NCBI GenBank assembly: GCA_946544115.1
Contig: CAMNLW010000001.1
Span: 16,392 to 80,391, forward strand
Length of the DNA: 64,000 bases
DNA from: an uncultured Verrucomicrobiota bacterium
GTDB lineage: Bacteria > Verrucomicrobiota > Kiritimatiellia > RFP12 > UBA1067
Reading direction: 5' to 3'
Shown here: positions 1 to 17,700 of the stretch, one piece after another
Position numbering within the stretch: position 1 is the first letter of the stretch
Layout: the number at the start of each line of letters is the position of its first letter
The notes under the pieces: model-generated
The model's database searches: none
Seen by the model: only the letters and a program-made list of their open reading frames with translations
What the model was told of the DNA's origin: nothing
Made by a program: the position numbers and the translations under genes

Positions 1-446
1 ACGACTACAGCCAGGGGGCGAAGGCCGTCGCGTCGGGCATATATCCCGGGCGCCGGTACGGGGCGCTCAAGCGCGCCGACCGCACTCTCATGTTCGCCGA
101 GCTGCCGACGATCGATCCCGCGACGCGCAGGCGTCTCGACGAGCCGAGCGGCGCCGAGGCCGACTGCACGCTGCAGTACAAAGCGTCGATAAACGGCAAC
201 AGCTACAACTCGTCGTGGAACGGCAAGGCCGAGTCGGTAGGGTTCGTGCACAAGTCGGGCAAGCGCAACTATTGCGCCCATGTCGTCTTTGCCGACGCCC
301 ACACGGAAAAGCTTGTATATTCGGAAGCCGGGCTGAGCCTGCAGGACTTGACGGCAGCGCTCTGCGAGGGGCTTGACGTGGCCTTCGGCAAGCAAGGCTA
401 CCAGCTGGCGAAGGATGCGGACCAGATGGAGGCGAACGACGAATGA
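1..446 (+). CDS. 5'-truncated CDS: C-terminal part of a PVC-type prepilin-like (H-X9-DG-like) protein
   Basis: The frame of ORF 90..446 stays open back to the window edge (DYSQGAKAVASGIYPG...). The tail KRNYCAHVVFADAHTEKL resembles the (N)VLFADGHV tail of prepilin-type H-X9-DG proteins, but here it is DA rather than DG and there is no His at -10. The stop overlaps the next start (ATGA at 443-446). Confidence 0.45.
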   Translation, partial: DYSQGAKAVASGIYPGRRYGALKRADRTLMFAELPTIDPATRRRLDEPSGAEADCTLQYKASINGNSYNSSWNGKAESVGFVHKSGKRNYCAHVVFADAHTEKLVYSEAGLSLQDLTAALCEGLDVAFGKQGYQLAKDADQMEANDE

Positions 447-3400
447 AAGGGGGTTTGGGCATGAGACCGTTGCGTGAGACTTTCGCACTGTCGAAAAAGC
501 TTGCGGCGCTTGCGGCGCTGGCCGCGCTCGGTTTCGTCCCGGCGAGGGCCGACGTGCAGAGCCTTGTCGACGAGGGCAAGATAACGTGGACCGCGGCAGA
601 TGAAGACTGGATCGACGGGGAACTTGTACTTACGTTCAACGACCCGGACGAAGCCGGGACTCTTACATTGCCGGGGCTTACAAGGGCGAGGATACTTGCC
701 GTAGGCGGCGGCGGCGCGGGCGGCGCGGTCGGCACGACATCTAACTCCCGTGGCGCTGGCGGCGGCGGCGGCGGCGGCGGCTTCCTGGAAATCGGCCCGG
801 TCCTGCTTGAAGGCGGCGACTACGATATAACGGTCGGCAAGGGCGGTGATGCCGGTGAATTTATAACAGGCGCCAACATAATCGGCGGCGACGGCTATCC
901 CAGCAAGATTGAAAAAGATTCCGACCTCCTGGTATATGTCGGCGGCGGCGGCGGCGGCGGCGCGGAAAGCGACGGCAACCCCGGTTGCGCAGGCGACGCG
1001 ACCGCCACGCTCGGCACGGCGGGCGGTTCCGGCGGCGGCGGCTCGAAAATGTATGTTTCCAATACAGACTGGGCTAATCATGTCGGCGGCGAGGGCGTTG
1101 GCGGCGGTTATAAAGGCGGTGACGGTAGCGTCAGCAGGTCTGGCGGCGGCGGCGGCGGTGCCGGTGGCGACGGTACTGTAGCCGAGAAAGCAAACGTTGG
1201 AGCGGCCGGCGGCCCGGGCAGAACAAGCTATATCGCGAGCGATGACGGTATCGGCTACGCAGGCGGCGGCGGCAGCGGAACGCGTTCAGCCCTTAGCGCC
1301 AACGTCGGCAAAGGCAGTGATGGCGGCGGCAACGGCGGCGGCGGACAGAAAACCGCAGAAGACGGCGACCCTGGCACCGGCGGCGGCGGCGGCGGCGGTA
1401 CGCAGACCGCGGCGGGCGGCAACGGCGGCAGCGGCGTAGTGATAGTAAGGATTATCGAGTCCATTGACGGCGATCTCGACATTCCCGAGGGGAAGACGCT
1501 CCCCTACAACGGGGAGAACCAGATCGCCGTAAAGGACAGCTTCGCCTATCACTTCGAGGCCGGCAGCGTTACAAACGCCACGGATGTCGGGAATTATTCG
1601 TTTACCGTCACGCCGAACACCGGTTTTAAGTGGAGCGACGATACAGACCGCTCCGTCACCGTTGAATGGTCGATTGTCCAGGCATCGGTAGAGATTCCGA
1701 CGATTCCTGCCGGTCTTGTCTACGACGGCTCGGTGCAGACGGCGGCGGTGGCGACGGCGGCGTATACGCTCACGGGCGAGTCGTTCGCGACAGACGCGGG
1801 AACATACGATTTCACGGCGACGCTTGTAAGCGAGGAGAACTACAAGTGGGCCGATGGCACGACGGCGGCCAAGAGCTTTACATGGACTATCGCCCGGCTT
1901 GAAGTGGAAAAGCCTGCGGGTGTTTCCGGCGTGGAGTATGGCGGCACAAACGTCGCGGCTTACGCCGAAAGCGAATATTATTCGCTCGTAAGCGGTATTC
2001 ACAGCGCGACAAATGCCGGCAACTACGCCTACACGGTTGCGCTCAGCAACCCATCCGGCAAGACCAATCTCGTCTGGAAGGGCGAGTCGGGCGAGGCGGC
2101 GGCGGAACCGCTTACGATTGAATGGTCCATCGCGCCGGTGGCGGTTGACGTGCCCGCCGTGCCGACGGGGCTGGTATATACCGGCAATAACCAGGTTGCG
2201 TTCGAGTCGGGCGAGCACTATCATTTCACCGAAGCGAGCGTAACGAACGCGACGGGCGCCGGGTCGTACCCTTATGAAATAGTCCTCGACAATCCGGCAG
2301 ACGCTACGAACTACGTCTGGAAAGTTTCCCCGCCGTCGAGCGAAAACAGAAGCGGGAACTGGACGATAGCCAAGGCTGCGAACGAGTGCAGCGTAACGCT
2401 GGAGGGCTGGAAGATCGGCGAGACTCCCGAGACGCCTGTAGGAGAGGCAACCTGGGGGGCGGAATCGGCGACGTATACCTACGCCGCTTCGCCGACAGCC
2501 GCAGAGACCGAATGGACGGACGAAGTTCCGTCAACGGCCGGGCAGTGGTATGTAAAGATGACCGTCCCCGAGGCGGAGAACTGGCTCGGCGCCACGGCGA
2601 CGGCGAGTTTCGTGCTGTGGGAAAGCCCGGCGGACGTCTTTCGCAACAGCATAACATATATTGTGCGGGAATCGGGGGTTAAACCTACCGCATTCTGGCA
2701 GTCGGGCGAATTCGCCGATGATGCGGGCAAGCACGGCGGCTATGCGATAACGCTCAACACCGGCAACACAATAAACGACGCGGGCAACATCGTAATCGGC
2801 GACACCGCGACCAAGGGCGCTGGCATTTCCATCGCCTCGGCAGGAAAAACGAAGGCATCGATACTCGTAAAGTACAAGGCGCCCGCTGGCGGCGCCCCTG
2901 CCGCAAACTCTGTGCTGGCGGGTGTTGTCGCAACAGACAACCACCCGATCGGCGCATTCTGCCAGACGGCGGGCGGCACGTCAATGGAGGGCTATTGGTT
3001 AAACGGCACAACGGCGGCCACGGGGTATTCCTTCAAAACGCCGCCGCCAGCCGTGGAGGGCGGTTCAGGATATTTCCTCTTCTGCTACCACTCCGATGCA
3101 AGTAGCGCTGCCGTTACGGACGGAACGGCGTTTTATGCGGGCGATTCGATTGGGAATCTCGTTGGCGGGAATGTGGCCGGCCTGCAGTGGCGTGGCCACA
3201 CTATAAACGAGCTGTCGATCGGCGGGCCTGCATCCGGTGTGACCGTGCCGTGGAAGGGGCTGGAGATCGAGTCAGTTGCTTTGTTCGTCGATGCATGGCT
3301 TACCCCGGACGACATCACGATGAAGAACTTCCAGATACCGGTGAGGATTTCGGAGGACAAGTCCAAAGGTCTTGTCTACAGCGAGCTTGGCAAGGACGGC

Positions 3401-6400
3401 ACAAAGCTTGCATTTGTCGGCGAAGACGGGAGCCTCCTCGCCTATGATGTGGACACATGGAATGTCTCGGGCGAGTCGGTTGTCTGGGTGAACCTCCCGA
3501 CGGCTGCGGTCGGCACCAAGTTCACGATGTACTGGAACATCCGTGACGGACAGATCGCGCCCGGGCCGAAGCCCGAAAAGGTCTGGGCCGACTATGCAGG
3601 CGTCTGGCACTTCAACGAAACGATCACAAGCGCCACCGCCGCGTCAACCGCCTCCAAGGACTCCACTGGCAACGGGCTTGACGCTGTGCCGACACGCGGA
3701 ACAAACACAGGAGACCAACGTACACAGATGGCGAGCACAAGCGGTGTCTTCGGCAACGCCCGCGTCAACTCCACCGGTATGTATACGGGCGGCAACCGCC
3801 TGGTTGTTGACAACTCCGGCGATCTTGAACTTGGCTCGGTGTTTATGTTCTCTGGATGGGTAAAGGTCGGTGGTATAAATGGATCGAATATCATCGTGTC
3901 GCGAAAGGAAGGCTCCAATGACAACAATGGCTGGCAGCTGGGGCTCTGGGGTTCCACCGCCGCAGGCAGCCTTGCGGTCTGGGGGCCTGGCGGCAGCCCT
4001 GTACGGCCGGAGATCTCGTCAACCAGTCTGGCGTCGCTTGGTGATTATTTCTATGTTACTGTAGTATATAACGGCTCCAATCTGGTGGTTATGTACAATG
4101 ACAGTTACTACAACACATATTCGGGACGAACCGCTGTGGCGGATAACGGCCTGCCGCTTGCTTTCGGCGGCGGCTCGGGCAACGGCAGCCAACTGGTCTT
4201 TAACGGCTCGTATGATGAATTCCGAATCAGGAAGGGTCTTGTCGAGACCGACATGGCCAAACTTCGCGATCGCACCAGGGCCGAATATGCGGCGGCGACT
4301 AGCGACAGCTTCCTTTCGCGCGGGCTTGTGGAGCGCGACGGCAAACTTGTCAACTACTGGGTCCGCGAGCCCTCGATCACGCCTACAAACTGGGACGTCG
4401 GCGATAATCCGGCGGACGACGCGCTGGATGTCGGCGAACTCTTCGCAGGCACGGTAACCAACTGGATATACGAGGTGAACGCGCCGACGAACATTTACTC
4501 GAAGATTTCCGAGATTCCCGAGGACAGAACCGGCGTCTTCCGCGCGGTGAGCCGTCCTGTAGAGACCAACCTGTATGAAGATCTCGCCTTCGAGGTGACG
4601 TTCAGAATCAACGCCCACAGCCCCTACAGCAACATCCAGGGCAATGGCGGCGACTCTGGCCGCGTGCTCCTGATGAACAACGATGCAAACAAAGACTTTC
4701 CTATTGACTACCAGAACTGGTATGATGCCGATACCTGGGGCGCCAAGAAGTCAAATACGACAACTTTCTGGCAGATGCTTACAAGCGACGAGTTGACCGA
4801 CAGGACTTTCAATATGAAGGACGGCACAGAGTTCGTCCTCTGGACCGCCAACTACGGGAGCAGGCTTTGGCATCTAATAAACTGCCGTCACGGCAACACT
4901 TTCCCGTACAACAACGACTCGTCGGCGCTGGCGGATGACCAGAACTATCTGCCTTATTCCTCGACCTCTCGTCGTATCACTTCCCATAATGCATTGAACA
5001 TTCGTCGCCGTGACGTCGGTCAGATCGTTATGCGCAATATTGAGGACGCGGCGGTCTATTCGCAGTGCTTCACAAACGGAGTGGGGTCGATATACTTCGA
5101 CGCCGTGAACGGCTGGACGGCCGGCGCCGCCGAGACGGGCGATAACTACAAACTTGTGGTAGAGGTCGCCACAAACGCCCTCCTTTACGGCGAGAGCGTT
5201 CTCCCGACGGATGAAAACTCGTGGGACGAAACTGACGGCGTTACCAACTACTACGCCAACCTCGAAACCACGTGGCACAAAGCAAATGTGATCCCCTATC
5301 TTCGCGACGGAACGGACGACTTCACCCGTCTCGACGCCACGAACGAGCTCGCCCTCGCCGTGAAGAACGGCAAGACGATGAAGAACTTTTACCGCGTCGT
5401 TGTCCCGTTTACGGAGCTGGGCAACGAGGTTTATGCCAAGGCGAGCCACCTGCGCTTCAGGATTCGTCGTACTACGGCTACTGGCGAAAACGCCGATAAG
5501 TCGGGCATGATCCTTCTCGACAATATAATCGTCTCCTATCCGCCGATGAGGGCAGAGCTCGGGACGGCGGGCTTTTACGACGCGGGCGACGCCGCGAAGC
5601 GCGGCAAGACGATGATGGGCTACGAGCTTTCGACCTCCACGCCCTACCCTGCCGCCGGCGACGCGACGCTCAAGGGACGCGCCAAGGCGACGTACATCGT
5701 GAACGAGGGCAATCCGCTCGCCGACACCACCGCTTTCGTCGCGGCGGCGCAGATGTGGTACCGCTGGCGCTACCTCAATCAGCGCTTCGGCGACTGGAAG
5801 TATGTGGACCTCGACCCGATGACATTCGAGTCGGCCCAGACGCTCGACCTCCCGTCCGTCGCAGGCGATGTGGAATATTATTACACCGCCCAGCTGCAGG
5901 CGCCGTTTTACAAGTATGTCGACTACTCCGGCACGAATCTCGGCGTCCCCTACAGCGAAGAGGTGACGGATGTCACGAACAGGCTCGACTCGGCGACGAT
6001 TCTGCCGACTACGGGGACGGACTGGTTCTTCCGCCTAAGGAAGGGCGCGAGCGAATGGGAGGGCGTTTCGGTTGTCGCCCAGGGCGCGCTCACCAACGAA
6101 TACCCGATGGCGCTCATCGAGGATGACATGTGGCGCGCGCTTGTCGTGATCCCGACGAACGCCGAGGGGAACTGCACGTTCACGTTCAAGGGCGTGAACA
6201 AGCTCACTGGCTCGCCTTGGGAGATCAAGGAGAACGTCACGAACTGGGGCGTCGCCGACAGCGCCGACGCGTCGTTCACGCCGCCAGGCAACGGGCTTCT
6301 ACGCGAGGGGGGCGATCCGCTGTCGTTCGAGGTCGACCATATCTCCAACTATCTGGAGGTCAAGATAAGCACGCGCTACCTTACGTGGAGCGTAGCGAGG

Positions 6401-9400
6401 GCGGAGTATCAGGACTTCAACCACTGGAACGACGCCCACACCCCTGCGGAGAACCCGCAGTTCAAGGTCAACGTGCCCACGAACGGCGTCGACGACGTGA
6501 CGATGAAGACATATCCGCTTGCGGACGACATCAAGACATGGAGCGAATTCTCGTCGGGCAACAGCGATTGGGACGAAATATTTTATCTCTCGAACTACAA
6601 CGACCCCGGCTTCCCGAAGGAGGTCGTTTACCAGAGCCATGTAACCCCGGCGCGGTGGGACGGCTACAATCTCTCGTTCGTCTCGACGGAACTCACGAGC
6701 GGTTCTTCAGACGACCAGATGAAGAAGTCCGGCATGGGCGCGAAGCTCATCGGCCAGGGCAGGGGCTCGCTAACCTACACGAAGTCCAACTGCCCCGAGG
6801 GGCTTGAGAAGGTTTCGCTGAGGGCGAGGCTCGGCCAGTCGATGACGTTCGACGGCATAAGCTGGCATCCCGACGCCTGGGGGAAGAAGGACTACATGTT
6901 CTTCGTTCCCGCGACGATGAGCCGTAAATGCAGCAACGACTCGGCGCTCGGCGATATGGCGGTCGGCGCGGCGGTCTCGGTTGTCGGCTACTACAGGCCG
7001 TCGGCCGGCTGCTACGAGTTCAGGGCAGAGCGTCTTTACTCGGGGTCGAACATGAGGCTCTCGCTCTACAAGTGGTCTGTGAACAACGGCACCATGGAGC
7101 CTACGCTCCTTTGCGCGCAGGATTTCAAAGACACGCGCAAGATGTGGTCGAACGATTCCTCTGCCGCGGCCAACACCAAGCTTTATTACGGCATGTTCAT
7201 CTCGCTCGAGAACACGAGCTCGGGTACGCGCATCATCGGCGGCCTTTCGGTAAACGGCAAGGCCGTTGTCGACACGAACCCGGCCTCCAACTTCTCCGGC
7301 GACAGCGGCGGCTTCGGCGGCCTTGTCTACACCGACAGTTCCAATCCTCTCACGCGCGGTGCATACGGCGTGATGTCGAAGGACTGCCCGGCGGAGTTCA
7401 TGGCGCCTGTTTGCTACAAGACGGCGTTTACATCGGGCATCACGACAGGCGGCAACGCTTCGATGGGTCTCGGCGGCCAGTATTTCAACCCGTCCGCAAA
7501 CAAGCTCACGTTCGGCGGGTCCGCCACATTCGACGATCTAAGGGAGTCGCTAAGGGAGGACGAGTGGGAGCTTGTCGCCGGGCGCGCACAGTGCTACACG
7601 AACCTGCTCAACCAGGGCAGCGCCAACTACGCCTGGACGGGCATCCGCACCCCGACGGACATCAAGCAGACGGTCGAGCTGTGGCTGAAGTCGAAGACGG
7701 CTCCCGGCGCGAACTGGGTGAAATACGGCGAGAAGGAGGTTTCGAGCTATGGCTTCACGAGTTCGTTCGACCTGCCGCTCAACATAACCGGCACGTGGGA
7801 CATCAAGCTCACGACCGGCGGCTACAACGCCGATGTCGTCGTCGACGACGTGAAGCAGTACCAGTGGCAGGCGCCCGACCTCGACGGCCTCGAGGCCTAC
7901 AGCGGGCGGTTCATCTACACGCAGGGCGTCGTCGAGACCAACAAGACGCTCAAGGCGAGACAGCTCGTGCTGCAGCCTTCGCGCGGCGTCGCGACCAGGG
8001 CGATGTCGCTGAGATCGCCCATCCTCGGCGGTCTCGGGCGCGTGGCGTTCTCCTACGAGAACGTGGACGCGAACGCCGAGATCTGGGTCCAGGTCGCGAC
8101 GAACTCCGTGAACGGCGCGACGCTTTCGGGCGATGGGGGCTACAACAGGTCCGTCAAGTCCGTCGACCTCGCCGATATCGCCGCCGGGACCGCGACAGAA
8201 CCCGTCGGGACGTGGATAACGCTCGCGAAGTACACGGCGGCGGACCTCGGGACCTCGGGCTCGAAGCCGGTCTACCTCGGCTGGCACAACAACGAGGCCG
8301 ATTCCGTGCGCGGGGTCTTCCGTCTTTACGTGCCGACCAACGTCGTCTCGGCCGCGATCGTCGCCGCGACCAACGAGACGCAGAACACGGCCTACGGGCG
8401 CATCACCATAACCGGCATGACCGTCACCGACGAGCCCGCGCTGTCAGACAGGGCGTGGCGCGGCTGGAACATCCGCACCATCGGCGACGGCGCCGACACC
8501 GAGCGCCGCATGAACATCGACGACTCCTCGCTTCTCGGCGAGGACGGCACGGGCCTCGACTGCGGGCTCAACAATTCGACGGAAGACGTGGTGCCCGTCG
8601 ACGAGATCGTCAAGGTTGAATCGGGCAATCCCGCGATCTACTCGCCGACGTTCAAGTCCTACGGGCAGAAGCGCGGCGTAGGCGCTGTCACGTTCTCGGC
8701 CAGGCTCTACTCCACCAACAACACGCCCGTCACGGCCGGCGCCGGTCTCGTGACGCTCTACGGCTCGACCAGCTCCACAAGCGAGAGGTGGGAAAAGATA
8801 GCTGATTTCAAGATCGACAGCAGCGTCTTCGCCGACTATACGTGGACGGCGTCGAACCAGACCTACGCGGCGGTCAAGCTGGAGGTCCCGACGATCTCCG
8901 GCGAATACGACCGCGTGATTCTCGACGAGGTCACCGTGTCCGAAAAAGTCCAGCCGTCGCTGAGCTTCGTCTACGCGACGCCGTTCCGCCAGAACCTCAT
9001 GTCCAGCGAGCCGATCGCCGATATCGACAGCCCCAGCGAACAGCCGCTGGCGGGCGAGAGCTGGGGCGTGCAGGCCAAGCTGGCGCTCAGACAGCTCGCG
9101 GACGAGATCGACCTTGAAAAGGGCGTTACCGTGACGCTCGCCTACTACTCGGCCGATTCCTACGACGGCCGGCCGCCGGCGGTCTGGGGCTACGGCAACT
9201 GGGAGTCGATAGCCAAGGCGAACGGGAACTACGCGATCCCGCTCAAGCAGGTGGGCGACCCGGCGGACCTCGTATTCCGCTCGGTGGGCGACAGCCCCGA
9301 ATCGCTCGTCCAGCCGTCGTCGCGCGGCGGGGTTGTCGTGCAGTATCAGCTTACGGCCACGTTCTACGGGCGCGACGGCACGGAATACACGCAGACGGTC

Positions 9401-11242
9401 GACAACTGGGAGCAGCCCGACTGGTACTACCCGATCGACCACAACAAGGCGAGCGGCGCGACCGATCCGGCGAGCCCGTCCTACTCGCCCTACACGATTC
9501 TCGACTCGGTCAGCCCGGGCCGCGCGTGGATCAACGAGGTCAACTGGAACGACGGCGCGGGCGCCGACAACGACAACCAGTTCATCGAAGTCTGCGTCCC
9601 CGCGGGCATCGACATGACCGGCTGGTACATAAGGCTCAACGACGGTAACAAGAACCATAATCCGTGGATCATGGCGACCTTCGGCTACGGCAGCATCCAG
9701 GGCTCGGCACAGCGCTCCGAGAAGGGGACGAACGGCTATGAATTCGTAGTCCTGCAGAGCCCCAATACGAGCATGAACAGCGGCGGCATCCGCGACACTT
9801 TCGACGGGCAGGTTCTAAACGCGCCTGCGTGGTACAGCGACGGCATTGACGGCTCTGCGCCGAACGGCGAGCTCAACTACGGCTATCCGTTCCAGTTCGA
9901 GCTTGTGCGGCCCTCGGGCGTTATCGAGCACCAGTTCGTCCTGCAGGGGACCAACCAGTGGTCCGGGACGGACTACGAATACTATTCTTCGGGCGAACAT
10001 CTCACGTCCCAGCTCCAGACGGCCGACGGTTCGCCGCTCCGGTTCTACGCTGGCGAGGAGAAAGACGTGCGCGAGGGCGGCGAGCCCTACGGCTTCGACG
10101 ACCGCAGGTTCGGTTCGTCGGGCGTTACCGGCGACGGCGAGACTCCCGGCGCGACAAACTCCTGGAAGAGCGCGATGATGTTCACGCCGGGCCGCCTCAA
10201 CGAAGGCCAGACGATCCCCGAGAACTGGTTCCTCAGACCGAACGGGACGAACGCGTGGGTCTATCTGATGGTCGAGGGCGGCCATATTTCGCAGAACGTC
10301 GGCGGCAACACCGACAGGTCGGTGATGATCGTCGTGCCGCAGGGTTCCCAGACGAACGTCACCTACTCTGCGACGCCCTGGTACGAGGTCTCGTATATAG
10401 ACACAGACGGCGACAAGGTCTACCACCACACGCCCGGCGAATGGGTCTACTCCTTCACGCCCACCCAGCAGACCTCCTACGTTACCGCGTATGAAGGTCC
10501 GGTGGAGAAGCTCGTGACGGACTTCGGGCTCAAGGAGTCCAACCCCTACACTCCCGCCGTCATCAACTGGCTTGCCGAAAACTATCCCGACAAGACGCCC
10601 GAGGATATCAACGCCGCGATCTACAAGGGTCTCGCGGAGGATTCCGTCGAGCAGCCGCTTACGCTTACCGAGATGTACTGGCTCGACATCGATCCGTTCG
10701 GCGCAGAGCGGCAGTGGTGGCTGAGGGGCAACTTCGTTCAGAACCACAGCGGCGGCACGCTCACGATAACCAACAGGACATATACGAATCTCGCGGGCGA
10801 GACGATCGTCCACACCAACAGGATACTAACGGCCAAGCTCTACATTTCGAACGCGGTCGACAAGGTGGCCCACGCGCCATCCCGGCTGCAGGGCCTCGCG
10901 AACGAGAAGAGCGACGAGTTCTACGGCAGCTGGACGAGCGTTACGTTCCAGGTGACGGCGATGCTGCTTACGGACATGCCGCGCAACAAGGGTTTTCTCA
11001 CGTTCCGTCCGTTCATCTTTGACAAGGATTCGTTCTACCCTGCAGGCGACGAGCACGAGTTCGAGTCGACAATCGAAATCCTCGATCCGTTCTCGAAGGC
11101 GTCGCCCGGCTACGGCTACGGCTGGAGCGACCGCCCCGACCTTGACAAGGACGACGGTTCTCTGTGGCGGTGGGAGATCGGCACGACCAACACCTTCCCC
11201 GTCCAGGTGGAGCGTCTCAAGAAGGAATCGACTTACGATTGA
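443..11242 (+). CDS. giant secreted multidomain protein (3599 aa): glycine-rich domain, MBG-like repeats, LamG-like domain, lamin-tail-like domain
   Basis: One uninterrupted ORF with a signal-like N-terminus (KKLAALAALAALGFVPARA). Domain-like segments seen:
- Poly-Gly blocks at nt ~690-1455, ending GGNGGSGVVIVRI.
- Four repeats with xYxGxxQ...TNAxxxGxY...(E/T/N)W(S/T)I at nt ~1480-2400.
- LamG-like WHFNE..DSTGNGLDA..FMFSGWVKV..YDEFRIRKG at nt ~3600-4240.
- LTD-like AWINEVNWND..NQFIEVCVPAGIDMTGWYIRL at nt ~9520-9765.
Alternative start at 461. Confidence 0.9.
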   Translation: MKGGLGMRPLRETFALSKKLAALAALAALGFVPARADVQSLVDEGKITWTAADEDWIDGELVLTFNDPDEAGTLTLPGLTRARILAVGGGGAGGAVGTTSNSRGAGGGGGGGGFLEIGPVLLEGGDYDITVGKGGDAGEFITGANIIGGDGYPSKIEKDSDLLVYVGGGGGGGAESDGNPGCAGDATATLGTAGGSGGGGSKMYVSNTDWANHVGGEGVGGGYKGGDGSVSRSGGGGGGAGGDGTVAEKANVGAAGGPGRTSYIASDDGIGYAGGGGSGTRSALSANVGKGSDGGGNGGGGQKTAEDGDPGTGGGGGGGTQTAAGGNGGSGVVIVRIIESIDGDLDIPEGKTLPYNGENQIAVKDSFAYHFEAGSVTNATDVGNYSFTVTPNTGFKWSDDTDRSVTVEWSIVQASVEIPTIPAGLVYDGSVQTAAVATAAYTLTGESFATDAGTYDFTATLVSEENYKWADGTTAAKSFTWTIARLEVEKPAGVSGVEYGGTNVAAYAESEYYSLVSGIHSATNAGNYAYTVALSNPSGKTNLVWKGESGEAAAEPLTIEWSIAPVAVDVPAVPTGLVYTGNNQVAFESGEHYHFTEASVTNATGAGSYPYEIVLDNPADATNYVWKVSPPSSENRSGNWTIAKAANECSVTLEGWKIGETPETPVGEATWGAESATYTYAASPTAAETEWTDEVPSTAGQWYVKMTVPEAENWLGATATASFVLWESPADVFRNSITYIVRESGVKPTAFWQSGEFADDAGKHGGYAITLNTGNTINDAGNIVIGDTATKGAGISIASAGKTKASILVKYKAPAGGAPAANSVLAGVVATDNHPIGAFCQTAGGTSMEGYWLNGTTAATGYSFKTPPPAVEGGSGYFLFCYHSDASSAAVTDGTAFYAGDSIGNLVGGNVAGLQWRGHTINELSIGGPASGVTVPWKGLEIESVALFVDAWLTPDDITMKNFQIPVRISEDKSKGLVYSELGKDGTKLAFVGEDGSLLAYDVDTWNVSGESVVWVNLPTAAVGTKFTMYWNIRDGQIAPGPKPEKVWADYAGVWHFNETITSATAASTASKDSTGNGLDAVPTRGTNTGDQRTQMASTSGVFGNARVNSTGMYTGGNRLVVDNSGDLELGSVFMFSGWVKVGGINGSNIIVSRKEGSNDNNGWQLGLWGSTAAGSLAVWGPGGSPVRPEISSTSLASLGDYFYVTVVYNGSNLVVMYNDSYYNTYSGRTAVADNGLPLAFGGGSGNGSQLVFNGSYDEFRIRKGLVETDMAKLRDRTRAEYAAATSDSFLSRGLVERDGKLVNYWVREPSITPTNWDVGDNPADDALDVGELFAGTVTNWIYEVNAPTNIYSKISEIPEDRTGVFRAVSRPVETNLYEDLAFEVTFRINAHSPYSNIQGNGGDSGRVLLMNNDANKDFPIDYQNWYDADTWGAKKSNTTTFWQMLTSDELTDRTFNMKDGTEFVLWTANYGSRLWHLINCRHGNTFPYNNDSSALADDQNYLPYSSTSRRITSHNALNIRRRDVGQIVMRNIEDAAVYSQCFTNGVGSIYFDAVNGWTAGAAETGDNYKLVVEVATNALLYGESVLPTDENSWDETDGVTNYYANLETTWHKANVIPYLRDGTDDFTRLDATNELALAVKNGKTMKNFYRVVVPFTELGNEVYAKASHLRFRIRRTTATGENADKSGMILLDNIIVSYPPMRAELGTAGFYDAGDAAKRGKTMMGYELSTSTPYPAAGDATLKGRAKATYIVNEGNPLADTTAFVAAAQMWYRWRYLNQRFGDWKYVDLDPMTFESAQTLDLPSVAGDVEYYYTAQLQAPFYKYVDYSGTNLGVPYSEEVTDVTNRLDSATILPTTGTDWFFRLRKGASEWEGVSVVAQGALTNEYPMALIEDDMWRALVVIPTNAEGNCTFTFKGVNKLTGSPWEIKENVTNWGVADSADASFTPPGNGLLREGGDPLSFEVDHISNYLEVKISTRYLTWSVARAEYQDFNHWNDAHTPAENPQFKVNVPTNGVDDVTMKTYPLADDIKTWSEFSSGNSDWDEIFYLSNYNDPGFPKEVVYQSHVTPARWDGYNLSFVSTELTSGSSDDQMKKSGMGAKLIGQGRGSLTYTKSNCPEGLEKVSLRARLGQSMTFDGISWHPDAWGKKDYMFFVPATMSRKCSNDSALGDMAVGAAVSVVGYYRPSAGCYEFRAERLYSGSNMRLSLYKWSVNNGTMEPTLLCAQDFKDTRKMWSNDSSAAANTKLYYGMFISLENTSSGTRIIGGLSVNGKAVVDTNPASNFSGDSGGFGGLVYTDSSNPLTRGAYGVMSKDCPAEFMAPVCYKTAFTSGITTGGNASMGLGGQYFNPSANKLTFGGSATFDDLRESLREDEWELVAGRAQCYTNLLNQGSANYAWTGIRTPTDIKQTVELWLKSKTAPGANWVKYGEKEVSSYGFTSSFDLPLNITGTWDIKLTTGGYNADVVVDDVKQYQWQAPDLDGLEAYSGRFIYTQGVVETNKTLKARQLVLQPSRGVATRAMSLRSPILGGLGRVAFSYENVDANAEIWVQVATNSVNGATLSGDGGYNRSVKSVDLADIAAGTATEPVGTWITLAKYTAADLGTSGSKPVYLGWHNNEADSVRGVFRLYVPTNVVSAAIVAATNETQNTAYGRITITGMTVTDEPALSDRAWRGWNIRTIGDGADTERRMNIDDSSLLGEDGTGLDCGLNNSTEDVVPVDEIVKVESGNPAIYSPTFKSYGQKRGVGAVTFSARLYSTNNTPVTAGAGLVTLYGSTSSTSERWEKIADFKIDSSVFADYTWTASNQTYAAVKLEVPTISGEYDRVILDEVTVSEKVQPSLSFVYATPFRQNLMSSEPIADIDSPSEQPLAGESWGVQAKLALRQLADEIDLEKGVTVTLAYYSADSYDGRPPAVWGYGNWESIAKANGNYAIPLKQVGDPADLVFRSVGDSPESLVQPSSRGGVVVQYQLTATFYGRDGTEYTQTVDNWEQPDWYYPIDHNKASGATDPASPSYSPYTILDSVSPGRAWINEVNWNDGAGADNDNQFIEVCVPAGIDMTGWYIRLNDGNKNHNPWIMATFGYGSIQGSAQRSEKGTNGYEFVVLQSPNTSMNSGGIRDTFDGQVLNAPAWYSDGIDGSAPNGELNYGYPFQFELVRPSGVIEHQFVLQGTNQWSGTDYEYYSSGEHLTSQLQTADGSPLRFYAGEEKDVREGGEPYGFDDRRFGSSGVTGDGETPGATNSWKSAMMFTPGRLNEGQTIPENWFLRPNGTNAWVYLMVEGGHISQNVGGNTDRSVMIVVPQGSQTNVTYSATPWYEVSYIDTDGDKVYHHTPGEWVYSFTPTQQTSYVTAYEGPVEKLVTDFGLKESNPYTPAVINWLAENYPDKTPEDINAAIYKGLAEDSVEQPLTLTEMYWLDIDPFGAERQWWLRGNFVQNHSGGTLTITNRTYTNLAGETIVHTNRILTAKLYISNAVDKVAHAPSRLQGLANEKSDEFYGSWTSVTFQVTAMLLTDMPRNKGFLTFRPFIFDKDSFYPAGDEHEFESTIEILDPFSKASPGYGYGWSDRPDLDKDDGSLWRWEIGTTNTFPVQVERLKKESTYD
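758..781 (+). repeat. (GGC)8 in-frame trinucleotide tract (Gly8)
   Basis: Read directly from the sequence; encodes AGGGGGGGGF in the glycine-rich domain. Confidence 0.9.
941..961 (+). repeat. (GGC)7 in-frame trinucleotide tract (Gly7)
   Basis: Read directly from the sequence; encodes YVGGGGGGGAE. Confidence 0.9.
1379..1396 (+). repeat. (GGC)6 in-frame trinucleotide tract
   Basis: Read directly from the sequence; with the following GGT it encodes Gly7. Confidence 0.85.
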
Positions 11243-11258
11243 ACATGGGAGTGATTTT

Positions 11259-11267
11259 TGGTAAACT
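11259..11267 (+). promoter_or_regulatory. candidate extended -10 (TGgTAAACT) upstream of the lipoprotein gene
   Basis: Lies in the 61-nt gap after giant gene 1, 36 nt upstream of ATG 11304. Confidence 0.3.
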
Positions 11268-11303
11268 ACACAATGCTTGACTTGAAGAAAGAGCGATGAC
11301 AAG

Positions 11304-11783
11304 ATGATGAAACGTACGAGACAGGGCCTCGTGGCGTATGCGTTTGCCGCATGCGCTGTGTTGTCGTTTGCGTTTTTGGGCTGCAGCCGCGATGAAGCGG
11401 CGCCGCCTGCGGAGCCTTCCGCCGCGCCTTCCGCGGCGGCCGAGGCCGCTCCGTCTGCCGAGCCGGTGAAGGTCGTGTCCCGCCTCGCAGACCCCGCCTA
11501 CAAGACGGCGCTCGACGGACAGGCGGCCGACAGGGCGGCTCTTCTCAAGACGCGCGACGGCGTGGCGGCGAAGATGCGCGGCATGGTGAACGCCGCGCGC
11601 GCGCGCCTCGCGACCGATGACGAGGCGGCCGTCACCGCCGAGCTGGAGAAGGATCCCGAATGGGCGGGCCTGCGCGCGCGTATCGCCGATTTGAACAAAG
11701 CGCTCGAAGACAACCGCCGCAGGTCTGCCGAGGTCGTGCGCCGCAAGATTTCATCCGAAACCAAGGAAGTCAATTTGAAATGA
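11304..11783 (+). CDS. small lipoprotein (159 aa), Ala/Pro-rich linker plus helical C-terminal part
   Basis: Lipobox-like signal MMKRTRQGLVAYAFAACAVLSFAFLG-C, then a PAEPSAAPSAAAEAAPSAEP linker. It sits between the two giant genes. Its stop overlaps a possible ATG of the next gene (ATGA at 11780-11783). Confidence 0.7.
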   Translation: MMKRTRQGLVAYAFAACAVLSFAFLGCSRDEAAPPAEPSAAPSAAAEAAPSAEPVKVVSRLADPAYKTALDGQAADRAALLKTRDGVAAKMRGMVNAARARLATDDEAAVTAELEKDPEWAGLRARIADLNKALEDNRRRSAEVVRRKISSETKEVNLK

Positions 11784-11794
11784 GGAACGAAGCC

Positions 11795-14700
11795 ATGAAG
11801 AAAAGCAACCTAGCATTCACGCTTGCAGTCGTCATCGCCGCGCTGGCGGCGCCGTTCGGCGCGCGGGCGAACATCGCCTCGATAGAGTCGGTCGCCGACT
11901 CGTCGACAAGCGTCGCGGCATATCCAAACATGAACTCGCCGCTTGTCGCAGGGCAGACGCTCTACGTGCGCCTTCGCATGCTCAACAAGGGGTGGCGTCC
12001 CAACATAAGCGACGGGACAGGCTGGAAGTGGGACAGTGAAGCGTTCACCGAGTCGACGGGCCCGGCCCTCGGTCTCGCGGTCGGCGGCAAGCGCGTCTGG
12101 GCGCCTTATGCCACTACGACGCCCGGCCTTGTCGCGAACGGCGCCGTCAACGGCCCTGTTACCGATCTTTACTTTGCATACAAGGTGCAGCCCGGCGATA
12201 TCGGCAAGACCGTCTGCCTGCTTAGGACGGACTACAAGACCTCCGACAGTTCAAGCGGCGATTTCCTCATCCGCGGCGTAAACGACGGCACGTCAAAGTT
12301 CACGCTTGTCAGCGACGACAGCGATGCCACCGCCGCCGAGTTCAAATACGTCGACCAGGCGACGCAGAGCATCTTGAGCACTTTCATCACGGTCATCACC
12401 TCCACGCGCGAGATAAAGGAGCGCGTCTATGTGCAGGCGGTCGATTTCGACAGCCCGAAGTATACCGACGCCTGGCGCTATGTCGACCAGGGCGCGTACG
12501 AGCCGGTCGACGGACTTGTCCCTACGATCAACTGCAGCGGCGCAGGCGAGAACGAGGCGCTTTATGTGTGGTCCGACGACGAGAGCGTGTGCGTGCCGAT
12601 CGATATAGATCTCAACCCCGCCCGCACGAACGTCGTGGACGGCAAGACGGTTCTTACGATTCCGCTTTCCGGTTCCGCCGAAACCGTGAGGTTCTACCTA
12701 AAGGGCGGCGATGCGGCGGTCGGTTCCACGACAAAGATATACATGAGCCCGGCGGTTCTCGGCAGTTATACAGAAGTCGGCACGAGCATCGAGGAGTCGG
12801 CCGTGGCGACGACGGTCAAGCTCGTGAACAATCCGCCGACCGTTTCGCTCTACTTCAACGAGACGAGCAACGACCCGTTGACCGTCGACTGCCAGACCAA
12901 CTACGCCAAGGCCGCGGCGTGCACGCTCACGGCGAGGCTCTCGAAAGCTGTCGATCATGATGTTACTGTAAACCTCGCCGCCGATCTCGCGGGGAGCGAC
13001 CTCGCCGCGCTGTTCAATGACGACATAATCGGTCTCGGCAGCACCTATCTGAAGGAGGACACGTCCATCACGATTCCCGCCGGTCATCTCTTCGCCAATC
13101 TCAACCTCTACGCGCTCGGCTGGAACGACGACACTGTCGAGAGCGGCATAAACTTCACCATTGCCGGTATCGAGAACGACACGGGCGATGTAACCGTAAG
13201 CGACGACTCGATAAACCTCGTTATAAGCAGGCTCAATCCCGTCATAACGACCGAGCGTCCCACGCTCGACGTCTACAACAAGACCGAGGTCCCCGACGAG
13301 AAGTTCCAGGTCACGGTAGAGGACTGCTATCTGGCCGAGAAGGACTGGGGCGCGTTCACGTTCGACATCATCCCCGATGTCAACAACCCCGACAACAAGC
13401 TTACGGGCGTTCCTGCCGTGCACAAGGGCGGCGGCGTCTTCTCGCTCAAGCCGACATTCGTCATGACGCCCGGCGTCACCTATGACGCGCAGGTGACAGT
13501 CCGTTCGCCCACGGGCACGAGCGGCTCCACGACGTTCTCGCTCATCGTCAAGAAGGCCAAGACGGTCTACGCGACGGCTTCGGCCTCCTCTGCGGACGAG
13601 GGCGGCAAGATAACGGTTTCGTTCAGCCTTTCCGAGAGCTACAACGCCAACACCTGGGCGTTCCTCGTACCGACCTCCGAGAACGCCGAGGAGTTCGTAA
13701 ACGCCAACGGCGCGCCGTTCACCTCGGGCGTGCTTATCGAGGCCGGCGAGACCGACGGCTCCTACACGGTCGATGTAGAGTTCGCCGACGGCGAGAACAA
13801 GCCCGTCACCTTCGAGGCGGTTCTCTCCTCCGAGGAGAACACGCTTACCAGGGTGACGGCCTACAGCCCGAGCAACCTCAAGCCCACCGTTTCGGTGCAG
13901 AACGTCGCGCCGAAGCTCACGAACGCGACATTCAACAACAAGAGGGTTACCGGCGCGACGGTAGCGACGGTTCCGAGGAAGGCGACGATTTCGATGGGCC
14001 TTGTGGCGTTCGACGTCGACGGCGACCTTGACGCTGTCAACACCGACACCTCTCTCGACGGCGTCTACAGCGACGCGAACCGCCAGTTCATGGCGATCTG
14101 GCGCTTCGACGACGGCTCGCCCGACCTCGTCACCTACGGCAATCCCGCCGGTCAGACGGTTTCGCGCGAGTTTACGTCCGACACCGAGGTCTCAATCTAC
14201 CTGAAGGACAAGGACCAGAAGCTTCAGACGGTTCTCGCCGGCGAGCCGGTGAAGACGTTCACGGTTCCCGTGGGCGACGAGCCCGGCGTCAAGATCGCCT
14301 TCTTGAGCGAGTATGACACGGGCGTCTGGAACGAGGACGGCGAGGACGACCATTCTGTCCTGGTGAGCCTCAATCCCGCGCCCGCCGAGGACGTGACAGT
14401 TCAGCTCACCGTTCCGAAGGGCTCCAACGGCGGTTTCCTCAAGTTCATTACCGATGCCGACGTGTCGCTCGTCAGCGAGGATGACGCGGCGATCGTCTAC
14501 AACGTCGCGATCGCGGCGAACCAGTCCTCTCCCGTGCGGCTCGACATCGACGCCATGGACGGCACGTCCACGACGCGCGCGCTCTACATAACCGGCGTCG
14601 TCACGACCGACACCCCGAGCGGCTACGGCGACAAGACCTGGGCAGACTACTACAAGGCCGGCAAGTCGCCCAAGATCCAGATAAAGAACATCGCCCCGAC

Positions 14701-17700
14701 GATCGCCCGCCCGACCGAGGAGCAGGCGGCGATAACCAACACCACCGTCAAGGTATATTCGCCGTTCTCCGTCGACTACCAGATCGGTGAAGAGGTCCGC
14801 GCCGACCTCGACAGGGGTGTGAAGGCCGAGCTTATCGTCGACGGCGACACAATCGCCACCGAGGACGTGACCGACACTCGCAAGCACACTTTCGCCAACA
14901 AGGTCGAGTTCACTTCGGGCGGACTCCACACCGTGACCGTCGTCTTCACCGACAAGGACGGCAACAGCGGCGAGGACGGCGACTCCAGCGAGCCGCGCAC
15001 TATGCTCTATGACGTGCTCTCCACCAAGAACGTGATGGTTGCGGCGCACGGCCCCGGGGCCTCGCGCGTCTCGGCCAACGGCCACTCCGTTCGCTACGCC
15101 AAGGCCAAGGGTCTCGGCGCGGGCCGCGTCGACGGCGAGCAGAACCCGCAGAGCATCAAGTCGTGGGTCTCGACCTACGCGGTCTCGGCCTCCGAATCGG
15201 GGCTCAACATGACGGCTCGCGGCTACCAGGCCGCCGACCCGCTCAATGACACGATCGACGCTTTCGGCAACACGCGCGGCACCGCCGACAGCTTCTCCTA
15301 CACCAACAACGTCGGCGTGGGCATGATGGGTTACGACAGCTTCTTCTACGCGTGGACGTGCAACAACTCCAAGCCGTCCGACGGCATCGAGCTTGCGAGC
15401 GACCTTCTCATAGCCCCAGGTCTCGCGGGAGAGTATGAAATCCCGCTCCAGCCCTACGACAAGGAGAAGACCACCTACGACAACCAGTACTGGGAGGCGA
15501 TCTTCTCGCGCGAATGGCGCAAGACCGACAACCTCGGCGATATAAACGCCGACGGCGTGCCTGATATCTTCGTGGCGCTTTACGACTTCGGCGTGATCAA
15601 CCGCACGACCTCGACGGTTCTTGACGGTGACGACATCGCCCCGCTCAACGACTACAACGAGGACGGCGACTTCTACGGCGCGACCACCAACGCCGAGCAG
15701 AAGTTCACCGCGCGCATGGAGATTCGCGGTCTCCACGACGGCCTCAACTACGGCATGTTCCCCGTTACCGACACTGAAGGATGGATTTCCGAGCTGGAAC
15801 TCGGCCCCGCGGAAAAAGCCGCGCTCGACCGCTGCCTCGCGGCGAAGATCGAAGACGGTTCCTGGACCGGCACCAACGCGTTCGACCTCGCGACGGCGCA
15901 GGGCCAGGCCGATGCGAAAGCCTTCATAACCTGGACGTGGCGCGAATACGTCGAGGGCGACGCCTCCACATGGGGCTTCACCGTCGAGAACCGCACAGAT
16001 CCCACCAAGGAGGATACCGACGGCGACGGAATGCCCGACGGCTACGAGTACTACTGGTGGTACGCCGCAACGATCGGCAGCAAGGACGACGGCACAGGCC
16101 TCGCGACCGGCAAGGCGTTCAACCTCGCCGATCTCGACAACCCGACCGACATATCCCCGGCCGACATCGCCAGGATATACAACCCGAACGCCAGCATCGA
16201 CTGGACCAAGCAGGATACCGATAACGACGGCCTCACCGACTACGAGGAACGCGCCATCGGGACCAATCCCGTCAACTGGGACAGCGACGGCGACGGATTG
16301 AGCGACCTATACGAGGTCATGTGGTCCATCGACCCGCTCAAGAACCAGAACGGTGTCAACGGCGCCATGAACAACGATCAGGACTTCATGGCCTTCGCCG
16401 ACGTCGGGTCGTACACCATCTACAAGCTGGGCAACGGCTCGTGCTATGCGTTCAAGCTGCCGCCGACGGTCGAATCCGGCGAGGGCGGCACTAACACCGT
16501 GCGCGGCGCGTACCTCGCGGTTCTGCCATACAACGGCAAGTACATCCCCGCGACGGAGATGGTCACCGAGAGGCTGCTTGATGGCTCCTACGGCGAATTT
16601 ACATATGTCGACGGCGATGCGACGACAGTAACCTATGGCTCTGTCGCGCTTTACCACTACCAGGTCTACAACCGTTTCGGCTTCGATCCGCGCACCGGCT
16701 GGTGGAAGGATTCCGCCAACGGCACGGTCTCGCGCACGACGCGCTGGCTTGACGGCGGCAGCCCGCTGCAGGCCGGCACGCCGGTGAACACCATGCCGTT
16801 CACCGCGCGCGACGAATTCATGCTCCTCAAGTACCGTTATCTGCTCGGGTTGAGAAATCTTGCCGATGATCAACGCAAGCTCGCTGCCGAGGAGACGACC
16901 ATGGCGGCGATTCTCGCCGGCGGGTGCACCAACCCGAACGCCGTGAAGGACAGCTGGAGCTGGCCCTTCGGCGACAAGGCCGTCAGCTACCCGACGACCC
17001 ACGGCGCCGACACCGACGTCGACGGCGTGCCGGACGGCTGGGAGCTTTATGTAGGCGTCAACCCGAACGTTCCCTTCACGAGCAACAACGAGGGTCTCTA
17101 CAACGTGATTCGCGATACCGACAGAGAAGACGGCCTTGCCCTTCTCGCCGAGTACGCCGGAACCGACACATGCGGCAACTATGACGAGGGCGGCGCGAAC
17201 TGCCCGTCGATATACGCCAACCATCCGAGCGAGGCTTCGGGCTGCATGCCCGGCTGGTTCAACAAGTTCATGCCTACCGATCCGCGCGACGACGATACCG
17301 ACGGCGACGGCATCAAGGACGGACAGGAGGGCCAGAGCTGGAGCGGCATCTACACGATGAACCGCTGGGGCCAGCGCGTGAGCGAAGTCGCCGCGAGGAC
17401 GGTCAAGCACTTCTCGATCTACGGCAGCCCGACCAACGCCGTCTCGCGCTGCATCCAGGGCGGCGGCTACAACCCGTGCACGATCGATACCGATGGCGAC
17501 ATCCTGCCCGACCCGTGGGAGCGCCAGTACGCGGGTCTCCTCTTCCACGGCAACAACATCTCCACGGAGGGCGACTACAAGGTGTTCGGAGTCGCAGGCC
17601 CGCCTTCCTCGGAGTTCTTCGACGACATCCGCGCGGCGGTGACGGCCAACTTCACCACCAACACGTCCGGCTGGCGCGTCCTGATGGGCATGGACGGCAC

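Follow-up and report, generated by a model that had tools for sequence, protein, structure and literature searches.

Among the closest described counterparts of the gene that we report here are the giant surface proteins of gut bacteria and of the Planctomycetes-Verrucomicrobia-Chlamydiae (PVC) group, which combine LamG, DUF2341, TSP3 and lamin-tail domain (LTD) modules. Parts of it also recall the phage tail-fibre-type proteins grouped as PF21722 and phrog_2295, the tandem jelly-roll arrays of reelin, meprin (MAM-TRAF), CBM22 tandems and neuropilin b1b2, the PilY1 proteins with their minor pilins, and the glycine-rich domain (GRD) of ALK and LTK. The gene, P1, comes from an uncultured Verrucomicrobiota bacterium (GTDB lineage Bacteria; Verrucomicrobiota; Kiritimatiellia; RFP12; UBA1067) and lies in a stretch of 64,000 nucleotides (nt), hereafter the window, which corresponds to positions 16,392 to 80,391 of the forward strand of contig CAMNLW010000001.1 in GenBank assembly GCA_946544115.1.

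P1 resembles the giants of gut and PVC bacteria in having a signal peptide, all-beta modules, a LamG domain, a DUF2341-like module and an LTD-like module, and one of its relatives carries the NCBI annotation 'DUF2341 domain-containing protein [Kiritimatiellae bacterium]'. It differs from them in that its large C-terminal core is not a repeat array but a fixed series of distinct domains kept as a unit, in that this core has no library match, and in that P1 is paired with a specific second giant gene, P2. The features of P1 are as follows, in window coordinates, with the corresponding amino acids (aa) of the product.

443 to 11242, + strand: giant gene P1, intact, 3599 aa
443 to 550, + strand: predicted Sec-type signal peptide, aa 1-36, cleavage after PARA; the only hydrophobic window, kept in homologues
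659 to 1450, + strand: glycine-rich domain, aa 73-336, with Pfam (PF21722, Gly_rich_2) and PHROG (phrog_2295) matches
1490 to 2617, + strand: four repeats of ~75 aa and a fifth, degenerate copy, aa ~350-725; phrog_37900 match, weakly MBG-like
2753 to 3292, + strand: insert of ~180 aa (aa 771-950), private to P1 and its closest kin (alignment occupancy 2-19%)
3395 to 3553, + strand: DUF2341-like beta-sandwich, aa 985-1037, scoring below its homologues at the same alignment columns
3818 to 4228, + strand: LamG or concanavalin-like domain, aa 1126-1262 (PF13385), matched above the cut-off on a tile
4625 to 11239, + strand: conserved C-terminal core, aa ~1395-3599, about a dozen beta-rich segments, no library match
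9500 to 9931, + strand: divergent lamin-tail-like domain within the core, aa ~3020-3163; HHalign match, Pfam LTD model silent

Across 57 homologues and 74 genomic loci, the conserved part of the P1 family is the C-terminal ~2200 aa and not the recognizable N-terminus. The shortest relatives, of ~2200 aa, start at P1 aa ~1380-1407, and in the family alignment occupancy and conservation are both high from ~1300 to the end and low or patchy before that point. When a profile of the first half of the core (aa 1395-2500) was searched against 1.84 billion representative proteins, it matched 449 clusters, 289 of them at E<=1e-30. Among the best 150 of these 449 clusters, the match always stops ~1100 aa before the C-terminus, and the stretch ahead of the core ranges from ~20 to ~4700 aa; long members of the family hold four Gly_rich_2 copies. 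Within the core, the domain order is fixed and dozens of Trp, Arg, Asp and Gly positions are invariant, as are acidic residues including D1553, D1685, D1693, E1811, E1839, E2192, D2298, E2834 and E3032. The genome carries a single copy (tblastn).

None of the libraries that we searched names this core. Pfam gave no match at E<=10 on seven overlapping tiles covering aa 1250-3100, NCBIfam gave none to the core, PHROGs gave none on four core tiles, and no sequence in the whole of PDB was matched at E<=1 by a profile of either half of the core; a few literature searches turned up no description of the core family or of its architecture. The initial annotation, made from the sequence of the window, had set aside about 1800 aa in which nothing was recognized, and that assessment holds. 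We find that the unrecognized stretch, the LTD-like module and the C-terminus form one conserved core of 2200 aa, and that it is this core which marks out a lineage-restricted family. Taken singly, the N-terminal domains are all in the catalogues and so add little new; it is the core family and its architecture, i.e. a constant C-terminal core, variable N-terminal cassettes and a fixed partner gene, that have no match in the libraries searched.

We assessed the distribution of the family in a sample of 401 genomes from the phylum. Of the 17 sampled genomes of the organism's own family, 14 have the first half of the core; it is partial in a few genomes of the same order and class, and was found in none of the 269 sampled genomes from 41 other families. 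The profile of the second half matched at full length within the organism's own family; elsewhere in the class it matched just the LTD-containing stretch, in other open reading frames (ORFs) of 2000-4000 aa. Record titles of the loci point to Kiritimatiellia metagenome-assembled genomes from the rumen, horse, goat, yak and human gut. P1-family contigs also occur in records titled Alistipes, Methanomethylophilaceae, Barnesiella, Faecalibacterium, Gemmiger, Lachnospira, Azospirillum and Clostridiales, and these contigs (L001, L005, L006, L007, L017, L021, L034, L058 and L070) are almost certainly mis-binned.

The N-terminal third behaves differently from the core. The homologue P0004 is 88% identical to P1 over aa 953-3599 and 40% identical in the glycine-rich region, has a nearly identical signal peptide and lacks the insert. 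In P0003 the relationship is reversed, with 88% identity at the N-terminus and 77% in the core. In P0006 and P0007 the signal peptide is followed directly by DUF2341, and P0006 has neither the glycine-rich domain nor the repeats. Because of this pattern of identities, we regard the N-terminal third as a cassette region that is exchanged between strains. On these sequence comparisons, the core is inherited as a unit, and what varies and is exchanged are the recognizable N-terminal modules.

We modelled the core with AlphaFold2 in two parts, using alignments of 71 sequences for aa 1395-2500 and of 67 sequences for aa 2501-3599. The mean predicted local distance difference test scores (pLDDT) were 87.4 and 85.7, respectively, and the models consist almost entirely of beta strands with few short helices. 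The predicted template modelling (pTM) scores of 0.55-0.61 indicate well-folded modules whose mutual arrangement is uncertain. As modelled, the core is a string of jelly-roll and beta-sandwich modules; about a dozen segments were counted from the strand pattern and from dips in confidence, and their boundaries are approximate.

Foldseek searches with the ~1100-residue models against PDB and BFVD returned only generic tandem jelly-roll or beta-sandwich arrays. The matches include reelin repeats, meprin beta (probability 1.0), CBM22, CBM4, neuropilin b1b2 and an ephrin receptor, as well as the lambda tail tip and phage host-specificity and tail-tip proteins, and their template modelling (TM) scores are low, at 0.05-0.4 overall (<=0.41) and 0.10-0.20 for meprin beta. 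Tandem jelly-roll arrays are the best fold matches of both core models, but with TM-scores of no more than 0.41 and no sequence relationship to P1. P1 also resembles MAM-type jelly rolls in two recurring motifs, one for the start, S-P-x(3-8)-G-x-G-x-[IV]-x-F, and one for the end, [IV]-x-[LIV]-D-[DEN]-[IV]-x-V. Membership of the MAM family (PF00629) was rejected, as the model has no match in the genome at E<=10, and the resemblance is one of fold only.

Pairwise HHalign comparison of 15 core segments linked aa 1524-1709 with aa 2508-2665 (J1 and J4) at 79%, linked three more jelly rolls weakly, and gave 11% for A2 against A3. With one moderate link and the others weak, we rejected the idea of a recent internal repeat array. 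By these profile comparisons the core is instead an ancient series of distinct domains in fixed order, in which several of the jelly rolls are anciently related to one another.

The initial annotation had also pointed to an LTD-like module, from a motif at aa ~3020-3165. The Pfam LTD model PF00932 (cut-off 34.3 bits) finds nothing on the P1 tile at E<=10 or in 41 family copies at E<=0.1, and a six-frame search of the genome with it at E<=10 does not touch P1. We therefore compared profiles, using 25 bona fide LTDs (63-86 bits) taken from other Kiritimatiellia. By HHalign, the family profile of aa 3010-3175 matched these LTDs with a probability of 81% (E 1.2e-5, 104 columns), whereas eight other P1 segments stayed below 1% against the same profile, and for this reason we assign aa ~3020-3163 to a divergent LTD; the AlphaFold2 model has an eight-strand beta module at this site. 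The claim is thus retained as a divergent relationship, but not as a match to the Pfam family. The giant ORFs of other Kiritimatiellia families are rich in canonical LTDs, with up to 38 matches per genome, and none was seen at E<=1e-6 in the genome of P1 or in four other sampled genomes of its family. Another giant ORF of this genome, of 3303 aa (C2:12327-18071; L075, L076), has two sub-threshold LTD matches of 24 and 19 bits.

P1 is a single ORF with an ATG start and no interruption. The initial annotation had allowed that it might be a pseudogene, a caveat that we can now answer: the product is on record in identical form from two contigs (NCBI/ENA and Logan), and relatives at 77-88% identity are intact at 3300-3400 aa, so that a pseudogene or an assembly artefact was rejected. 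The G+C content is 55-65% across P1, as in the remainder of the window, and a horizontal island was rejected because the composition resembles the surroundings. Rfam identified no RNA family in window positions 1-27000. The product has a mass of ~380 kDa and is almost wholly beta-structured. Its sole hydrophobic segment lies at aa ~14-38 (KKLAALAALAALGFVPARA, then DV, the predicted cleavage site PARA/DV following the segment), in agreement with the signal peptide that had been proposed, and this signal is kept even in homologues whose next domain differs.

The modules of the N-terminal third are readily placed in known families, with some corrections. In the glycine-rich domain, 37% of the residues are Gly and there are ten runs of G3-G8, as the earlier description of a poly-Gly segment implied; run lengths vary among relatives in the part of the family alignment that corresponds to window positions 758-1396. 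PF21722 matches with 56 bits (E 7e-15, profile positions 7-224 of 226) against a curated cut-off of 24.3 bits, and matches all 21 of the P1-family copies tested. A six-frame genome search with the same model scored 44.7 bits at P1, the sole copy in the genome, and the phage family phrog_2295 matches the segment at E 1e-20. The label 'ALK/LTK-type', which had been attached to this segment, is not supported. The ALK_LTK_GRD model PF12810 has no match on P1 (E<=1), in 21 family copies (E<=0.1) or in the whole genome (E<=10), and a 33-sequence profile of the glycine-rich family found no ALK or LTK chain in PDB at E<=10; what it did find were spurious FtsZ matches and a weak match to the fibre of cyanophage Pam3 (7ypx/7yfw, E 0.66). 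We therefore rejected an ALK-type identity on hidden Markov model and PDB profile evidence, although both are extracellular segments rich in glycine runs. Since polyglycine-II helix bundles are documented both for ALK and for gp38 of phage S16 (PMC13243192), a distant structural kinship with the ALK glycine-rich domain is plausible. The likeness to the phage tail-fibre-type proteins has its own limits: in the P1 family the domain is an optional accessory, absent from many members and present in up to four copies in some, and the defining part of P1 is an unrelated core of 2200 aa.

The glycine-rich domain is followed by four ~75-aa repeats of the form Y-x-G...G-x-Y...W-[ST]-I at aa ~350-645. 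These are the four YxG...GxY repeats already noticed, to which we add the fifth, degenerate copy that extends to ~725. The phage family phrog_37900 matches them at E 2e-30. Their description as MBG-like was tested with PF18676 (MBG_2) and PF18887 (MBG_3) and stands only weakly: P1 itself reaches no more than E 3.2 (8.9 bits) with MBG_2, but among the repeat regions of 18 relatives, two match MBG_3 (best 4.9e-4) and one matches MBG_2 (2.9e-4). The insert at aa 771-950 is named by no family library; tblastn located a paralogue of 57.6% identity on contig C37 (C37:420-971, - strand), and this contig also holds one of the four secretin genes of the genome (C37:14715-15248).

DUF2341 (PF10102, cut-off 23.4 bits) scores 17.3 bits in P1, against 32.2 bits in P0051 and 24.1 bits in P0008, and the columns matched in these homologues map to P1 aa 985-1049. 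For the LamG-like jelly roll, the proposal was confirmed by PF13385 (Laminin_G_3), with E 2e-10 and 41.5 bits against a cut-off of 27.6 bits on a 350-aa tile; in the homologues P0008 and P0006 the matches fall in the same alignment columns. This true match was lost when the whole 3599-aa protein was submitted to hmmscan, and the whole-protein Pfam and NCBIfam scans reported PF21722 only. Very long proteins of biased composition should therefore be scanned in tiles, as we did in all later scans of P1.

The neighbours of P1 within the window include the following.

1 to 446, + strand: 3' end of a prepilin-like gene of 330 aa, with a GFTLVELLVVI class III leader and a PF07963 match
11330 to 11360, + strand: terminator-like hairpin, one site against 0.9 expected by chance, carrying no weight
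11795 to 23638, + strand: partner giant gene P2, ORF open from 11660, product of about 3950 aa when counted from the Met of the signal peptide, with LamG and TSP3 calcium-binding repeats

Of the 59 loci in which 3 kb or more of DNA is available downstream, 47 have a P2-family gene as the next gene after the P1-family gene and on the same strand, usually after a gap of 150-700 nt. In the window, the two genes are separated by a 550-nt spacer (11243-11794), in which no sigma-70-like promoter was found. Beyond P2 are ack, pta, a SIS/CBS gene and a cluster running from PilM to a secretin. On the other side, about 4 kb upstream of the window start, C1:12327-14921 encodes a secreted protein of 864 aa that has no Pfam match and shares a ~79-aa repeat with P1 at 48% identity. 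It belongs to a family of secreted proteins of 500-860 aa. In 22 loci this family is encoded on the same strand as the P1-family gene and upstream of it, and it may be a third conserved component of this group of genes. The genome as a whole (G000; 2.28 Mb, 79% complete) contains 17 frames that run for 1500 aa or more without a stop, some of which may be antisense artefacts of high G+C.

The reading that we prefer, and to which we give an even chance of being correct, is that P1 is a surface binding fibre or adhesin-like display scaffold, with the core as its shaft and exchangeable binding modules, working together with P2. This keeps to the proposal, made at the outset, of a giant secreted or surface adhesin-like protein with an uncharacterized centre, which is still the best reading; we infer the surface location, the binding function and the partnership with P2. 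P1 would be exported by Sec as an extracellular, nearly all-beta protein of two parts. The core (aa ~1395-3599) would be the shaft of a fibre, at the surface or extracellular, and would provide for its assembly or anchoring. The core is always C-terminal and can occur with nothing but a signal peptide in front of it; its probable partner is P2, the TSP3/LamG giant encoded alongside, and in some lineages the small secreted protein encoded upstream and the prepilin-like protein may take part. The N-terminal cassettes, and perhaps the jelly rolls of the core too, would bind gut ligands, most likely glycans or other cell surfaces, with the cassettes setting ligand specificity.

Several observations count against this interpretation. 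Nothing that would hold P1 at the surface was detected: hydrophobicity along the whole protein shows no membrane segment beyond the N-terminal one, the signal peptide has no Cys and so no lipobox, no anchoring signal was found, and Pfam has no match on the C-terminal tiles. Adhesins are usually repeat-rich and fast-evolving, and conservation of the kind seen in the core is unusual for them; extending from end to end over 2200 residues, it exceeds what a passive stalk needs. Minimal forms that have no N-terminal module behind the signal peptide show that the core has a function of its own, which the display scaffold does not specify. The fold matches of the core models are of low TM-score and say nothing about ligands. 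End-to-end conservation and the existence of cassette-free forms therefore leave room for a structural, pilus-linked or enzymatic role of the core.

The pilus-linked possibility is that P1, P2 and the prepilin-like protein form a complex on, or exported by, a type IV pilus or a machine of the type II secretion kind, with P1 and P2 as tip-associated or pilus-delivered capture proteins, in the manner of PilY1 with the minor pilins. We consider this unlikely. The stop codon of the upstream prepilin-like gene overlaps the ATG of P1 (ATGA), so that the two are translationally coupled. Its product has a class III leader, GFTLVELLVVIGIIATLAG, with the N-terminal methylation and cleavage motif and Glu at +5, and matches PF07963 (N_methyl) at E 2e-6 with 27.5 bits against a cut-off of 21.2 bits; DUF1559 is matched at E 0.22 only. 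The same arrangement recurs in distant members (L054, L065, L074 and G246), and with only nine prepilin-like ORFs in the genome, the adjacency is not the by-product of a huge paralogous family. The genome also holds four secretins and four T2SSE-type ATPases, and the PilM-to-secretin cluster lies 4 kb beyond P2.

However, the prepilin-like gene is directly upstream in just 11 of the 44 relatives' loci that have upstream DNA, the overall count of loci with such a gene being 9-11. The proximity to the pilus cluster is not conserved either: in four relatives, 20 kb taken at an estimated position beyond P2, where P2 itself was not located, contained no homologue of ack, pta, pilM or the secretin, and a functional tie based on conserved proximity is unsupported in these relatives. 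The signal of P1 itself is of the ordinary Sec kind and is no pilin leader. P1 is indeed reminiscent of PilY1 in being a large, beta-rich protein that is secreted and whose gene directly follows, and is translationally coupled to, a prepilin-type gene, but P1 is about three times larger, Pfam finds no PilY1 family domain in the core or C-terminal tiles (E<=10), there is one prepilin-like gene instead of four or five minor pilins, and the coupling holds in only a quarter of the loci.

A more specific version, which we regard as somewhat more doubtful still, is that host-associated Kiritimatiellia have a type IV filament machine whose working end consists of the prepilin-like protein, P1 and P2. 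Its filament would retract or act like a piston, and would display two giant multi-lectin proteins stiffened by calcium. These would capture polymers of the host or the diet, or other cells, and draw them to the envelope, with the cassettes setting specificity. If true, this would add a new class to the cargo or adhesins associated with pili, one of much greater size than PilY1.

No better and no worse placed than the pilus-linked complex is a structural role, in which P1 and P2 build a calcium-stabilized surface layer, sheath or intercellular matrix as a constitutive part of the cell, ligand binding being secondary. The single-copy state of the core, its presence in 14 of the 17 sampled genomes of the family, its fixed architecture and high conservation would all suit such a role, as would the many TSP3 calcium-binding repeats of P2, a repeat type that the Myxococcus surface proteins CglD and MtsD also have. 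The exchange of N-terminal modules between strains, however, is more in keeping with a binding tip that is exposed and under selection than with a subunit of a lattice. P1 shows neither S-layer homology nor an anchoring domain, and in some branches of the family (12 of the 59 loci) the adjacent P2 gene is absent.

We find it harder to credit that P1 is an enzyme for a polymer substrate (for example a lyase, hydrolase or esterase of glycans), its core hiding a catalytic domain of a new kind, with the jelly rolls and N-terminal modules serving as carbohydrate-binding modules (CBMs). The core has numerous invariant residues that are charged or aromatic, D1553, E1811 and E3032 among the charged ones, and the Foldseek matches include jelly-roll enzymes with their CBMs, namely kappa-carrageenase, xylanase J, GH29, GH43 and PNGase F-II; Kiritimatiellia are known polysaccharide degraders (PMC10880615). 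Yet the core has no Pfam, NCBIfam or PDB sequence match to any enzyme, the fold matches are binding-type jelly rolls as often as catalytic ones and are all of low TM-score, and no active-site motif could be assigned. An origin as a phage-derived or tailocin-related receptor-binding protein is very improbable: the glycine-rich domain and repeats match phrog_2295 and phrog_37900, and the BFVD and PDB fold matches include phage tail-tip and host-specificity proteins, but the core has no PHROG match, the neighbours (prepilin-like gene, ack, pta and pilus cluster) are cellular, the gene is present as a single copy whose chromosomal surroundings are conserved across dozens of species, and its composition is like that of the remainder of the window.

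Host-associated Kiritimatiellia are common, uncultured members of rumen, horse and human-gut communities, and we know of no account of how they attach to or capture substrates. P1 and P2 together occupy about 23 kb, roughly 1% of the ~2.3-Mb assembly, which is 79% complete, and the P1 family is found in most of the sampled genomes of the lineage. For structural biologists, the core offers a defined target: a well-conserved, confidently foldable family of 2200 residues without an entry in Pfam, NCBIfam, PHROGs or PDB. For microbiome researchers, P1 provides a strain-variable surface marker, the cassettes of which may track ligand or host specificity.

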